This document shows, piece after piece, positions 9,001 through 15,000 of a DNA stretch of 64,000 nucleotides (positions are counted from its first letter, which is position 1; each line of letters starts with the position of its first letter). A program made the position numbers. The DNA lies in assembly GCF_045037415.1 (NCBI RefSeq), contig NZ_CP173438.1; one strand, written 5' to 3'. The stretch comes from Escherichia coli (GTDB lineage Bacteria; Pseudomonadota; Gammaproteobacteria; Enterobacterales; Enterobacteriaceae).

Positions 9001-12000
9001 GGTTTTTGAGCCGCTATGGACGGTGATCCCCGGTAACAAAGCGATTCTGCCGATCCTCTGGTCTCTGTTCCCGCACCATCGTTATCTGTTGGATACTGAC
9101 TTCACCGTGAATGATGAGCTGGTGAAAACCGGTTATGCCGTTAAACCGATTGCCGGGCGCTGTGGTAGCAACATTGACCTGGTCAGCCATCATGAAGAGG
9201 TGCTTGATCAGACCAGTGGTAAATTTGCCGAACAGAAAAATATTTACCAGCAACTGTGGTGTTTGCCGAAAGTGGACGGTAAATACATTCAGGTATGTAC
9301 CTTCACCGTTGGCGGCAACTACGGTGGGACGTGTTTGCGCGGTGATGAATCACTGGTCATCAAAAAAGAGAGTGATATTGAACCGTTAATTGTGGTGAAA
9401 AAGTAATACATGTTGTAGCAACCCCGTACTGATTATGAAGAATAATCAGTACGGGGATTAATCAAAACATTCAATATTTATATATTCCAATATTTATTCA
9501 TTTTATATGTGAATATATTAACCAGCAGAATACCTGTGTTTTGATTATTTCTAAAGGTTTTGAATGAATGCTTATTGTCTGATACACAAGAAATAACACG
9601 CTTTTTATCGTTAAAAAATGATATTTCACTTTGCCCATGCCGTTAAAGTCACTGATAATGCGTCCGTTCGTAAATTCAAAATGGCGTAATCTAATATATG
9701 CTAAATTTATTTGTTGGCCTTGATATATACACAGGGCTTTTGTTATTACTTGCTCTGGCATTTGTGTTGTTCTACGAAGCAATCAATGGTTTTCATGACA
9801 CGGCGAATGCGGTGGCAACCGTTATTTATACTCGTGCCATGCAACCACAACTTGCTGTGGTGATGGCGGCATTTTTTAATTTTTTTGGCGTGTTATTGGG
9901 CGGACTTAGCGTTGCCTATGCCATTGTCCATATGTTACCAACCGATTTGTTGCTGAATATGGGGTCAACTCACGGCCTGGCGATGGTCTTTTCCATGCTG
10001 CTGGCGGCGATTATCTGGAACCTGGGAACGTGGTTCTTTGGTTTACCGGCCTCCAGTTCGCACACCTTGATTGGTGCGATTATCGGCATCGGTTTAACCA
10101 ACGCGCTGTTAACCGGCTCATCGGTGATGGATGCGTTAAACCTGCGTGAAGTGACCAAAATTTTCTCCTCGCTGATTGTTTCCCCTATCGTCGGCCTGGT
10201 CATTGCGGGTGGTCTGATTTTCCTGCTGCGCCGTTTCTGGAGCGGGACGAAAAAGCGTGACCGTATTCACCGCATTCCGGAAGATCGCAAAAAGAAAAAA
10301 GGCAAACGTAAGCCGCCATTCTGGACGCGTATTGCGCTGATTGTTTCCGCTGCGGGCGTGGCGTTTTCGCACGGCGCTAACGACGGGCAGAAAGGGATCG
10401 GCCTGGTAATGCTGGTACTGGTGGGGATTGCCCCTGCTGGCTTCGTCGTCAATATGAACGCGTCCGGCTATGAAATTACCCGTACCCGCGATGCCGTCAC
10501 CAACTTCGAACACTACCTGCAACAGCATCCTGAACTGCCGCAGAAGTTGATTGCGATGGAACCTCCATTGCCTGCGGCATCGACTGATGGCGCGCAAGTG
10601 ACGGAGTTTCACTGTCATCCGGCAAATACCTTTGATGCGATTGCGCGCGTTAAAACGATGCTGCCAGGCAATATGGAAAGCTACGAGCCGTTAAGCGTGA
10701 GTCAGCGCAGCCAGCTGCGCCGCATTATGCTGTGCATCTCTGATACTTCCGCGAAGCTGGCGAAACTGCCAGGCGTCAGTAAAGAAGACCAGAACCTGCT
10801 GAAAAAACTGCGCAGCGATATGTTAAGCACCATTGAGTACGCACCGGTATGGATCATCATGGCAGTAGCACTGGCGCTCGGCATTGGCACCATGATTGGC
10901 TGGCGTCGTGTAGCGATGACCATCGGTGAGAAGATTGGTAAGCGCGGCATGACGTATGCGCAAGGCATGGCGGCACAAATGACGGCGGCAGTGTCTATCG
11001 GCCTTGCCAGTTATATTGGGATGCCCGTCTCCACAACACACGTACTCTCATCTGCCGTAGCAGGAACGATGGTGGTGGACGGCGGTGGGTTACAGCGTAA
11101 AACGGTAACCAGCATCCTGATGGCGTGGGTGTTTACTTTACCGGCGGCGATTTTTCTTTCTGGTGGGTTGTACTGGATAGCATTGCAGTTGATTTAACCT
11201 TCCTGAAAATGCCCGGTCCTGGCGATCGGGCATTTCCATTTTTGACTAGTGATAACCACGCGCGGTCATAAAATCCGTAATCGCTTTTTCTGCATCAATC
11301 AGCACCTTTTCCAGTGGCTGATTAGCATCGATATCAACCAGTTGTGCACCGCCAAAGGTTAACTGTGGCGTTATGGCAATCTTCCTCGCCAGCGATTCCC
11401 GTTTATGGTCGGGTTTACGCGCGCAGGCAACTTCAAGGTCAACATTGAGTTTGATGACCAGATCAGGTTTATGGCTCGCCATCCAGTGAAACGCTTTACG
11501 TTCCTGGCTTGCCAGCCATGAGACAAAACGACCACCTTCAATGTTAGGTGGGAACACTGTACCATCGTAAGCGCCAGGAATTTGGTCCTGAGGATAACGG
11601 TCGGTTAGAACAATTAACCCGCGACGACGACAGGCAAGCATATGACGAAAGCGCAGTAAGCGACGGGCGACAAACGCTGTAATTACCAGCGCCGGAACTG
11701 GTCCTGGCAATTTTTTTGCTGTTTTCACCTGATTTCGTTCAATTGTTTTATGTAAGGATTTTCCCATCAACGGTAATTTTGTCACTGAACGACCGACATT
11801 TCCGGCCTGTTTTCCTAAATGAACTCTTTCGGCAGCACCATATTTTTCGACAACGGTAATGAGATGTTCACACACCGTTGACTTGCCTGAACCATCGCTA
11901 CCAATAACGGCAATTAATGGAGGTGTTATTGACTGCATGAATATATCCTTTAATTTAAATATCCATTAAAAATATTTATTTGGTTAATATGTTTTTATGA

Positions 12001-15000
12001 AAGCGTAATTCAGGTCAATGTCACAATTAACCATTGTCACAATAAGGTTGAACGGATATTCTGAGCACGGACCACGTAATATTCAATACATTATTTGCTG
12101 CCGGGTTTTTCGTGAATCAACGTAATATGTCAATAATTAATTCCACGCCAGTGCGTGTTATTGCCATTGTAGGATGTGATGGTTCAGGTAAATCGACCCT
12201 CACGGCAAGCCTGGTAAATGAACTGGCAGCAACAATGCCAACAGAACACATTTATCTCGGGCAATCGTCCGGGCGAATTGGCGAATGGATTTCACAGCTC
12301 CCTGTTATTGGCGCACCTTTTGGGCGTTATCTGCGAAGTAAAGCGGCACATGTGCACGAAAAGCCCTCCACACCGCCTGGCAATATGACTGCGCTGGTTA
12401 TCTATCTGCTTTCCTGCTGGCGGGCGTATAAGTTTCGCAAAATGTTGTGTAAAAGCCAGCAAGGCTATCTGCTCATCACCGACCGCTACCCGCAGGTTGA
12501 AGTGCCGGGTTTTCGCTTTGATGGCCCGCAATTGGCAAAAACCACGGGCGGTAACGGTTGGATAAAAATGTTAAGGCAGCGCGAGCTGAAGCTGTACCAA
12601 TGGATGGCATCTTATTTGCCCGTATTGTTGATTCGTCTTGGCATTGATGAACAAACCGCGTTTGCGCGTAAACCTGACCACCAACTGGCGGCGTTACAGG
12701 AAAAAATCGCCGTTACGCCGCAACTGACATTTAATGGCGCCAGGATCCTTGAACTGGATGGTCGGCAACCAGCCGATGAAATTCTGCAAGCGTCACTACG
12801 CGCAATTCAAGCTGCGCTTTCCTGATCACCAAAATGGATAGGGGATGATTTAACGAATGGACGCACTACAAACACAAACTGTTAATAGTACAACCGCGCC
12901 GCAGCCCAACTACATTCCGGGGCTGATTGCGGTGGTCGGGTGTGATGGCACCGGTAAATCCACACTGACCACCGACCTCGTGAAATCGCTGCAACAACAC
13001 TGGCAAACCGAGCGGCGCTATCTGGGGCTGCTCTCGGGCGAAGACGGCGACAAAATCAAACGATTGCCGTTGGTTGGCGTCTGGCTCGAAAGGCGACTGG
13101 CGGCCAAATCATCGAAAACCCAAAGCATGAAAACCCAAAGCATGAAAACCAAATCTCCAGCGCTATGGGCGGCGGTGATTATGTACTGCTTCTCGCTGCG
13201 AAGAATGGCGAATCTACGCAAGGTTCAGCGACTGGCGCAAAGTGGCGTTCTGGTGGTCAGCGATCGCTTCCCGCAGGCTGAAATTTCGGGCTTTTATTAT
13301 GACGGACCGGGGATCGGCGTCGAACGTGCGACCGGGAAAATCAGCATGTTTCTGGCGCAGCGCGAACGGCGTTTATACCAAAAAATGGCGCAATACCGTC
13401 CTGAATTAATCATTCGTTTGGGGATTGATATTGATACTGCCATCTCCCGCAAGCCTGACCATGACTATGCCGAGCTGCAGGACAAAATCGGCGTCATGTC
13501 GACGATTGGCTATAACGGCACAAAAATTCTTGAGATTGATTCCAGAGCGCCCTACAGCGAAGTGCTGGAACAGGCACAGAAGGCGGTTTCTCTGGTTGCC
13601 ATCGTTTCTGACCGCCGAAGTTTAACTTAAGGCTGGCGGGATACTTTTTACTATCAACGATAAGGTCAGGCTGAATTGGCGGGTTTTAACATCAAACATT
13701 GGTTTGCAGATGGCGCGTTTCGCACCATTATTCGCAATAGCGCCTGGTTAGGCTCCAGTAATGTCGTGAGCGCTTTACTGGGTCTGTTGGCGCTCTCGTG
13801 TGCCGGTAAAGGGATGACGCCCGCCATGTTTGGCGTACTGGTGATTGTACAATCGTACGCCAAGTCGATCAGCGATTTTATTAAGTTTCAGATATGGCAG
13901 CTGGTGGTTCAGTACGGAACACCAGCATTAACCAACAATAATCCGCAGCAATTCCGCAATGTCGTCTCATTTTCCTTCTCGCTGGATATCGTCAGCGGCG
14001 CGGTGGCGATTGTCGGCGGCATTGCCTTACTCCCTTTTCTTTCCCATTCATTAGGTCTGGATGACCAAAGCTTTTGGCTGGCAGCGCTGTATTGCACGCT
14101 CATTCCTTCAATGGCTTCCTCCACGCCGACCGGCATTCTGCGTGCGGTAGATCGCTTCGATCTAATTGCTGTACAGCAAGCGACGAAACCTTTTCTGCGC
14201 GCAGCGGGGAGCGTCGTAGCCTGGTATTTTGACTTTGGTTTTGCGGGTTTTGTTATTGCCTGGTACGTGTCGAATCTGGTTGGCGGCACCATGTACTGGT
14301 GGTTTGCCGCGCGCGAATTACGCCGCAGAAATATCCATAACGCCTTCAAATTGAATCTGTTTGAGTCTGCCCGACACATTAAAGGCGCGTGGAGTTTTGT
14401 CTGGTCAACCAACATTGCCCACTCCATCTGGTCGGCGCGTAACTCGTGCAGCACAGTGCTGGTGGGGATCGTGTTAGGACCCGCTGCCGCCGGGTTATTT
14501 AAAATCGCCATGACATTCTTCGACGCCGCCGGAACGCCAGCGGGTTTACTGGGCAAAAGTTTTTACCCAGAGGTGATGCGTTTAGATCCGCGCACCACCA
14601 GACCGTGGTTGTTAGGCGTGAAGTCAGGTTTACTGGCGGGCGGAATTGGTATTCTGGTGGCGCTCGCGGTGTTGATCGTCGGCAAGCCGCTTATTTCGCT
14701 GGTGTTTGGCGTTAAGTATCTCGAAGCGTATGACCTGATTCAGGTGATGCTGGGCGCAATTGTGATTTCGATGCTGGGCTTCCCACAGGAGTCATTGCTA
14801 TTGATGGCGGGAAAACAGCGCGCTTTTCTCGTGGCGCAAACCATCGCCTCAATCGGCTACATCGTATTGCTGTTCATGTTCTGTCATCTGTTTGGCGTGC
14901 TGGGAGCAGCGTTTGCTTATTTCGGTGGGCAATGTCTGGATGTGGTGCTCTCGTTAATTCCGACCTTAAAGGCATTTTTTCAGCGCCATTCCTTGCTTTA

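Follow-up and report, generated by a model that had tools for sequence, protein, structure and literature searches.

In a 64,000-nucleotide (nt) stretch of Escherichia coli DNA (NZ_CP173438.1; here "the window", to whose positions all coordinates refer), three neighboring genes, yghT, yghS, and yghR, lie beside genes for ceramide synthesis and lipid transport. Their products are very likely phosphotransferases of the thymidylate kinase (TMK) superfamily that are not dTMP kinases, and they probably serve the sphingolipid pathway. Our analysis points to these three TMK-like kinases, together with a CHAD-like protein encoded four genes downstream, as the missing head-group machinery of what we refer to as the "E. 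coli-type" sphingolipid locus. The explanation that we favor, tentatively, is that this head-group module makes a pyro- or oligophosphate ceramide. An initial annotation of the window had suggested that the three proteins are small-molecule or lipid head-group kinases; this remains the best reading of the sequences, although the function itself is something that we infer. Here, we describe the three proteins, the locus in which they are found, and the chemistry that they may perform.

Sequence and fold of YghT, YghS, and YghR

The yghT gene (11246-11938, minus strand) encodes a protein of 230 amino acids (aa) with an isoelectric point (pI) of 9.9, which we refer to as the T type. It is divergent from yghS (12112-12825, plus strand), which has a GTG start codon and encodes the 237-aa S type. 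Downstream of yghS is yghR (12857-13630, plus strand), which encodes the 257-aa R type. Open reading frame (ORF) calling confirmed these coordinates. As proposed in the initial annotation, the three genes are paralogous, their products being 33-40% identical over the full length, with 55 invariant columns, and regular expressions recover the expected G(S/C)DG(S/T)GKST Walker A motif and DR(Y/F)PQ motif from all three. In YghR, the motifs read GCDGTGKST and DRFPQ; YghT and YghS both have DRYPQ. A third motif common to the three proteins, RKPDH, was missed at that stage, as were the conserved CHAD-like partner gene and an architecture resembling that of the polyphosphate kinase PPK3 (see below). 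The three are soluble proteins with a basic pI of 9.7-9.9.

RefSeq propagates the name "dTMP kinase" on yghT and yghS (L001:5247-6827; 25-26 bits). The best NCBIfam model for the three proteins is indeed the dTMP kinase model TIGR00041, with scores of 25.9, 25.1, and 31.2 bits against a cut-off of 83.25. Because these scores are only about a third of the cut-off, the name is an over-annotation; it is almost certainly wrong for these genes, and the labels on yghT and yghS are probably a systematic mis-annotation. Pfam found nothing significant in YghS (Thymidylate_kin had an independent E-value of 0.025), in the CHAD-like protein, or in a 492-aa relative. Single-sequence searches of PDB sequences with YghT and YghR returned nothing below an E-value of 0.08, so the link to TMKs was reached only by means of a family profile (A2) of 54 sequences, which matched thymidylate kinases in the PDB with an E-value of 5e-12. 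This profile aligns with TMKs over the P-loop, the SxxR helix, the DRY motif, and the strand before the lid. The alignment stops at DRYP and restarts at the strand before the lid, leaving the base-recognition segment unaligned.

The structural arguments made here rest on predicted models. The AlphaFold model of YghS is confident (pLDDT of 91.1, pTM of 0.87). Structure prediction and fold comparison, the check proposed with the initial annotation, gave TMK as the closest match, not the deoxynucleoside kinases (dNKs). YghT, YghS, and YghR share with thymidylate kinase (PF02223) the TMK/nucleoside monophosphate (NMP)-kinase fold, the P-loop, the DR(Y/H) motif, and the lid arginine. There are three differences: (i) YghT, YghS, and YghR have ~40 extra residues after the P-loop helix; (ii) a 25-residue loop, DRYPQ-x-E-x-PG-x-x-DGP, takes the place of the base-recognition helix; (iii) they are three co-inherited paralogs in a lipid locus, not one housekeeping gene. 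The loop (residues 124-148 of the YghS model) is family-specific, has no regular structure, and runs from DRYPQ to the next helix, with the invariant pattern PQ-x-E-x-PG-x-x-DG.

Within each group of orthologs, the Walker A lysine, the P-loop aspartate, the DR motif, the lid R-K, E158, and R104 are 98-100% conserved; for R125, the arginine of the DR motif, conservation reaches 100% in all three groups (T, S, and R). GxDGxGKST, DR[YF]PQ, and A-R-K-P-D-H are invariant in all three groups, the catalytic motif positions being invariant in 84 T-type orthologs and the motifs conserved in 63 R-type orthologs. In the alignment, R104 matches the arginine with which TMKs clamp the acceptor phosphate, and both of the TMK acceptor-phosphate arginines are conserved. 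Since every catalytic position is kept in each group, none of the three proteins is a pseudo-enzyme. The relatedness of the paralogs is well above what chance would give, and in other genomes they cross-match with E-values of 1e-40 to 1e-70. Each type has its own invariant signature in the loop that matches the NMP-binding side of TMKs, i.e., H-L-G-K-Q-x-G-N-x-G-R in the T type, Y-L-G-Q-S-S-G in the S type, and Y-L-G-L-x-S-G-E-x-G-D-K in the R type. These paralog-specific signatures suggest different substrates or different positions in a complex. As judged from their sequences, YghT, YghS, and YghR diverged from one another long ago, all have intact catalytic machinery, and together belong to an unnamed branch of the TMK superfamily.

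Could the proteins be genuine nucleotide kinases, as annotated, that provide a local supply of NDPs or NTPs or phosphorylate a nucleotide-activated lipid intermediate? In addition to the RefSeq names, the TMK fold, the P-loop aspartate, both phosphate-clamp arginines, and a phenylalanine at the base-stacking position of the T type all fit this explanation, and nucleotide-activated ceramide intermediates have been proposed for Caulobacter (PMC11324152). Nonetheless, we consider it very unlikely, given TIGR00041 scores of 25-31 bits against the cut-off of 83.25 and a base-recognition segment that cannot be aligned. Moreover, an essential, canonical tmk is located elsewhere in the E. coli genome, and there is no rationale for three extra dTMP kinases that are co-inherited with the ceramide synthesis gene spt.

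Two other families of P-loop proteins were considered and rejected. The first is the ABC ATPases (LptB-like). The initial annotation had correctly noted that none of the three proteins has an ABC signature (regular expression [LYF]SGG[QEM]); matches to ABC proteins span only ~25 residues of the P-loop, and the fold is that of TMK. The second is the P-loop proteins of anti-phage defense systems, for which PADLOC matches are local to the P-loop, with E-values no better than 1.6e-4.

Organization and conservation of the locus

The initial annotation placed yghS and yghR at the head of an operon that continues into the flippase and LptFG-like genes, and both gene spacing and terminator position agree with this. 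Downstream of yghR on the plus strand are (i) yghQ (13676-15025), encoding a MOP-superfamily (Wzx-like) flippase, with a weak NCBIfam MOP flippase match (35.9 bits) and the RefSeq product name "lipopolysaccharide biosynthesis protein"; (ii) a gene annotated as hypothetical (15025-15849) that encodes the CHAD-like, all-helical protein of 274 aa, here hyp274; (iii) a gene for a YtfJ-family periplasmic protein (15858-16421; TIGR01626, 216 bits against a cut-off of 151); (iv) lptF2, encoding an LptF paralog (16452-17522; TIGR04407, 316 bits against a cut-off of 230); and (v) lptG2, encoding an LptG paralog (17519-18598; TIGR04408, 306 bits against a cut-off of 240). The intergenic gaps from yghS through lptG2 are 31, 45, −1, 8, 30, and −4 bp, and the only strong hairpin along this run comes after lptG2. 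The short gaps and the position of the hairpin fit a single operon headed by yghS-yghR.

This terminator-like hairpin (18596-18630) has a stem of 16 pairs, 9 of them G-C, is bidirectional, and lies between lptG2 and the convergent spt. The latter belongs to a ceramide-backbone operon on the minus strand (18633-22744), identified from ORFs and RefSeq names, that consists of spt (18633-19805), acpR (19805-20053), cerR/epi, encoding an NAD-dependent epimerase/reductase (20085-20999), and aasR, encoding a fatty acyl-AMP ligase (20996-22744). Next comes yghO (23088-24230, plus strand), which, from its ORF and RefSeq name, is predicted to encode an N-acyltransferase homologous to bacterial ceramide synthase. 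E. coli Spt, AcpR, and AasR have been characterized biochemically and make 3-oxo-sphinganine; in E. coli BL21, the five ceramide genes form a cluster that takes in yghO, which is assigned as "aca" in the legend of Fig. 9 of the same study (PMC9386255). The three kinase-like genes do not flank the lipid locus, as had been stated; all three are at one end of it, with yghT divergent from the yghS operon.

A scan of one genome per species yielded 248 relatives, from which 79 loci were kept, 52 of them with full 10-kb flanks. The E. coli proteins were mapped onto the loci by tblastn, from which all locus counts derive; since the loci were picked by similarity to YghT, co-occurrence within them is not an unbiased sample. 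T-type orthologs are found in all 52 full-flank loci, and distinct orthologs of all three paralogs in 47. The spt gene lies within 10 kb in 40 loci, every one of which has the trio. Among the same 52 loci, the CHAD-like 274-aa gene is present in 45, yghQ in 35, a YtfJ-family gene in 32, and lptF2G2 in 28. The taxa represented are Enterobacterales, Xanthomonadales (Dyella, Rhodanobacter, Luteibacter), Betaproteobacteria (Methylotenera, Rhodocyclaceae), Halioglobus, and a metagenome-assembled genome of Myxococcales. The occurrence of the trio across these taxa means that the triplication is ancient and co-inherited with sphingolipid genes. The link to the lipid locus made in the initial annotation reflects synteny that is conserved across several proteobacterial classes and is not an accident of E. 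coli. Within the species, 80% or more of yghT-S-R is present in 4604 of 5426 complete genomes (~85%), and of spt-acpR in 4080.

The presence of transporter genes in the same operon raises the possibility that YghT, YghS, and YghR are non-kinase ATPases that energize or regulate the YghQ flippase or the LptF2G2 permeases, particularly as no ABC ATPase is encoded in the locus. We regard this as extremely unlikely: the fold is of the kinase P-loop class, not ABC or AAA+, the ABC signature is missing, MOP flippases are not ATP-driven, and the trio is also found in loci that have no lptF2G2. Furthermore, LptF2 and LptG2 of Caulobacter, which have been implicated in sphingolipid export, bind the housekeeping LptB (bioRxiv 10.64898/2026.04.12.717747).

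Variant loci and gene fusions give further information on the family. A fusion of the S and R types is encoded within an spt locus, and T-(S/R) fusions include one from Oecophyllibacter that adjoins the 274-aa gene, GT4 genes, and a YghQ-like flippase gene. These fusion proteins are a hint that the paralogs may form a heteromer. Five loci, including that of Nitrotoga, have the T-type gene alone, with the 274-aa gene, a GT4 glycosyltransferase, PAP2 phosphatases, and RND/OMF efflux genes as neighbors. In several beta- and gammaproteobacterial loci (L047, L048, L052, L058, L060, and others), the recurrent neighbors of the P-loop and CHAD-like genes are two families of PAP2 phosphatases, one of them Und-PP-phosphatase/PgpB/LpxF-like, GT4 glycosyltransferases, RND/OMF efflux genes, and genes for an acyl hydroxylase resembling OlsC/LpxO and for an LptA/LptC-like protein. 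In 15 enterobacterial full-flank loci (L012, L020, L023, L026, and 11 more; e.g., L020:7715-8074), a 119-aa ORF is located between yghO and the P-loop genes. The E. coli locus has no counterpart of this ORF. The ORF has no match to an NCBIfam family and was judged DgkA-like by sequence motifs alone; its product is a candidate for a dedicated ceramide kinase.

More distant relatives are found in other settings. A large sister group of ~500-aa proteins (P0161, P0168, and ~50 other representatives) combines an N-terminal domain, NTP_transf_5-like in 4 of 13 members, with a YghT-like kinase domain. For the one member that was looked up (L083:7223-8731), the surroundings are a polysaccharide cluster that also encodes a flippase, GT4, Wzy, a sulfotransferase, and ATP sulfurylase; the gene after it specifies a second small P-loop protein. 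In one protein (P0206), this pair of domains is joined to a MOP flippase, and another relative is fused to a GT4 protein.

The hyp274 protein is predicted to fold into two four-helix bundles with pseudo-twofold symmetry, as in CHAD domains; in the fold comparison, generic helical bundles are set apart by a gap, at 9.1 and below. A sequence profile of hyp274 had no match in the PDB. In the alignment of the family, R60, R88, K92, R95, and R196 are invariant and K197 is nearly so, with H93, H105, H193, and H237 also picked out. CHAD domains are polyphosphate-binding modules (PMC6537752), and hyp274, as modeled, resembles a binder of oligo- or polyphosphate. Among the 20 non-enterobacterial loci that have the 274-aa gene, 12 have it within 600 bp of a P-loop gene. 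Homology of hyp274 to the N-terminal domain of the ~500-aa relatives was also considered and was rejected (hhalign probability of 0.15%).

Possible head-group chemistry and its alternatives

The head group of Caulobacter sphingolipids is ceramide phosphoglycerate, which is made by CpgB, CpgA, CpgC, and the products of three further genes (PMC11324152); CC_1152/1153/1158 belong to the pathway (PMC11324152, PMC10331486). CpgB is a ceramide kinase of the diacylglycerol (DAG)-kinase type, the other enzymes are CDP-alcohol or nucleotidyltransferase-like, and the pathway yields anionic sphingolipids for the outer membrane (PMC11324152, PMC10331486). By analogy, the E. coli locus may have a head-group module beside spt-acpR-cerR-aasR, a flippase, and LptF2G2, as does Caulobacter. 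However, the enzyme families are wholly different, and the cpg head-group genes are absent from the E. coli locus. The tentative parallel with Caulobacter ceramide kinases drawn in the initial annotation therefore does not hold, since CpgB is unrelated and none of the Caulobacter head-group genes is TMK-like (PMC11324152). A CpgB-like (DAG-kinase-type) identity was likewise rejected for YghT, YghS, and YghR, given that no such family is among their NCBIfam or Pfam matches and that their fold is that of a P-loop kinase. The module that they belong to is shared by Enterobacterales, Xanthomonadales, and Betaproteobacteria and differs from the cpg pathway of Caulobacter. To our knowledge, the only well-known P-loop lipid kinase is LpxK, the lipid A 4'-kinase. 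As a P-loop kinase that acts on a membrane glycolipid, LpxK offers a likeness to the trio; an LpxK-like reading was considered and rejected.

Apart from the three kinases and the CHAD-like protein, RefSeq annotation and NCBIfam show no candidate head-group enzyme in the enterobacterial locus. We propose, as a possibility that falls short of being probable, that YghT, YghS, and YghR build phosphoanhydride head groups on ceramide phosphate. Ceramide would be made by Spt, AcpR, AasR, CerR, and YghO. Its conversion to ceramide-1-phosphate would fall either to one of the three paralogs or to a lipid kinase of the DgkA type, since E. coli DgkA can phosphorylate ceramide in vitro. The TMK-like enzymes, probably as a heteromer, would then transfer the gamma-phosphate of ATP to a phosphate-bearing acceptor, forming phosphoanhydride bonds as in TMK and PPK3. 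The product would be a strongly anionic pyro- or oligophosphate head group, with the CHAD-like protein binding the phosphate chain. Lastly, YghQ would flip the lipid, and LptB2-LptF2G2 would extract it for delivery to the outer membrane; typical cargo of MOP flippases is lipid-pyrophosphate-linked. Our analysis shows the fold, motif conservation, synteny, gene fusions, and the predicted CHAD-like fold; that the proteins are active kinases, which acceptor they use, that they form a heteromer, and in what order the steps occur are what we infer.

There are several reasons for favoring a phosphoanhydride head group. First, the signature chemistry of the TMK superfamily is the transfer of phosphate onto a phosphate. 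Second, both acceptor-phosphate arginines have been kept. Third, the partner protein resembles an oligo- or polyphosphate binder. Fourth, related loci add DgkA-like, Und-PP-phosphatase-like PAP2, and OlsC/LpxO-like genes. Alternatively, each paralog might phosphorylate a different hydroxyl, giving mono-, bis-, or tris-phosphate esters and not phosphoanhydrides; candidate sites are the C1-OH and C3-OH of the sphingoid base, the 2-OH of the acyl chain, and, in loci with GT4 genes, a sugar. We view hydroxyl kinases as unlikely, though worth keeping in mind: the closest matches in both fold and sequence are TMKs, for which the acceptor is a phosphate, not dNKs, the two arginines that contact that phosphate are conserved, and the CHAD-like partner would be left unexplained.

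The proposed chemistry has a partial precedent in PPK3, a heteromeric archaeal polyphosphate kinase (Saci_2019/Saci_2020) in which two TMK-like paralogs are encoded with a CHAD protein (PMC12995831). Similarly, the TMK-like paralogs described here are encoded together (three in 47 of the 52 loci) with what is, according to its model, a CHAD-like protein in the operon. The contexts differ, being sphingolipid synthesis, flipping, and export for YghT, YghS, and YghR, and phosphate metabolism for PPK3. The main text of the PPK3 paper, in which the three proteins were sought, does not mention Proteobacteria (PMC12995831); bacterial PPK3 homologues have been reported mainly in Acidobacteriota and Candidatus taxa (bioRxiv 10.1101/2024.08.28.610084). 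An extreme form of the proposal, which we consider improbable, is that the trio and the CHAD-like protein constitute a lipid-primed, PPK3-like enzyme that extends ceramide-1-phosphate to a membrane-anchored oligo- or polyphosphate, which the Wzx-type flippase would then flip and LptB2F2G2 would deliver to the outer membrane.

A different possibility is that the trio and the CHAD-like protein make or consume free polyphosphate, as a soluble PPK3-like polyphosphate kinase or a polyphosphate-dependent nucleotide kinase, with an indirect connection to sphingolipids, e.g., through phosphate or energy supply or through regulation. The architecture of TMK-like paralogs with a CHAD protein matches that of PPK3 (PMC12995831), all three proteins are basic, and a His_Phos_1 (SixA/PhoE-type) gene is found in the Oecophyllibacter locus, the only one that has it. 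By contrast, the tight synteny across classes is with spt, the flippase, and LptF2G2, not with ppx or pst genes, there is no catalytically dead regulatory subunit, and the sequences show no specific affinity to the PPK3 homologue. PPK1 and PPX are already present in E. coli, and, as noted above, the published bacterial homologues of PPK3 belong mainly to other taxa. We therefore rate this explanation, too, as improbable.

Several observations weigh against the reading that we favor, in which the module makes a pyro- or oligophosphate ceramide. With regard to PPK3, its regulatory subunit has lost the DRX arginine, a loss seen in none of the three paralogs; PPK3 has PPX/SixA neighbors, of which there are none in the E. 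coli locus; and profile A2 scores canonical TMKs at 49 bits and the PPK3 homologue 2plr at 30.5 bits, over the P-loop only. Because the profile favors TMKs over 2plr, a specific relationship to PPK3 is not shown, and the retained DR arginine, the lack of ppx/sixA, the lower 2plr score, and the distribution of PPK3 in other taxa together mean that membership in PPK3 is not established. With regard to the partner, hyp274 has no match to the Pfam CHAD family (PF05235) even at E ≤ 10, its assignment to CHAD being by predicted fold only. With regard to the acceptor, the retention of the TMK-like P-loop aspartate, and of the stacking phenylalanine in the T type, means that a nucleotide-like acceptor is possible. 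With regard to the pathway, in addition to the selection of loci by YghT similarity, 12 of the 52 loci lack spt inside the 10-kb range, and yghRST persist after the loss of spt-acpR in ~520 E. coli genomes, K-12 among them. A literature search on yghR, yghS, and yghT found only lists and screens in K-12, with no function assigned; the K-12 screens are uninformative because K-12 has no spt. Finally, we know of no description of a pyro- or oligophosphate ceramide.

If a pyro- or oligophosphate head group is indeed made, it would represent a new class of lipid and a second, independent recruitment of thymidylate kinase paralogs, together with a CHAD protein, for phosphoanhydride chemistry. Outer-membrane charge, susceptibility to polymyxin and detergents, and recognition by the host could all be affected. 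If the product were membrane-anchored polyphosphate, most E. coli strains and many Proteobacteria would carry an unseen class of highly anionic surface lipid.

Other features of the window

The 15-kb segment from 9000 to 24000, used as a query, is 100% identical to strain Ecol_AZ146, and the same genes appear in the RefSeq annotation of an E. coli genome with 98% identity. In gene order, yghT is preceded by gss and then pitB. At least 80% of the segment is found in 4054 of the 5426 complete E. coli genomes. K-12 retains only 44% of it, due to an IS5-associated deletion, and in O157 strains the whole locus beyond pitB is missing.

The divergent intergenic region between yghT and yghS (11939-12111) is 173 bp long and AT-rich, and is presumed to be the promoter region. 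A single sigma-70-like site on the plus strand of this spacer (12034-12062) is not above chance. In the scan for promoters and terminators, only two hairpins, at 11207-11235 and at 18596-18630, stood out from shuffled sequences. An Rfam scan of 9000-24500 found no family, meaning that no riboswitch or leader was detected in this region, the yghT-yghS spacer included. Within yghR, a 15-bp tandem repeat (13104-13150; 3.1 copies; consensus CCAAAGCATGAAAAC) encodes repeated K-T-Q-S-M in an insert loop. YghR is 257 aa long in the window and 252 aa long in strain 3150; the repeat is in-frame and strain-variable.

Features beyond 24000 were mapped from the Ecol_AZ146 annotation, with collinearity judged from the GC profile and not base by base. 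Remnants of type II secretion genes (yghD/gspM, a frameshifted gspL, and a truncated gspK) are located at ~33800-37500, beside a frameshifted IS4. A group-2 kps capsule locus, assigned by annotation mapping, extends over ~38600-55900 and includes a low-GC block at 40000-48000 (GC ~30%); the order is kpsMT-like ABC genes, the low-GC region 2 with a CDP-glycerol glycerophosphotransferase, and then kpsS, C, U, D, E, and F. The last part of the window (~56000-64000) is an island with a CbtA/YeeU toxin-antitoxin pair, an antirestriction protein, DUF932, and an AbiEii-like pseudogene, a gene content that is typical of a tRNA-associated genomic island.

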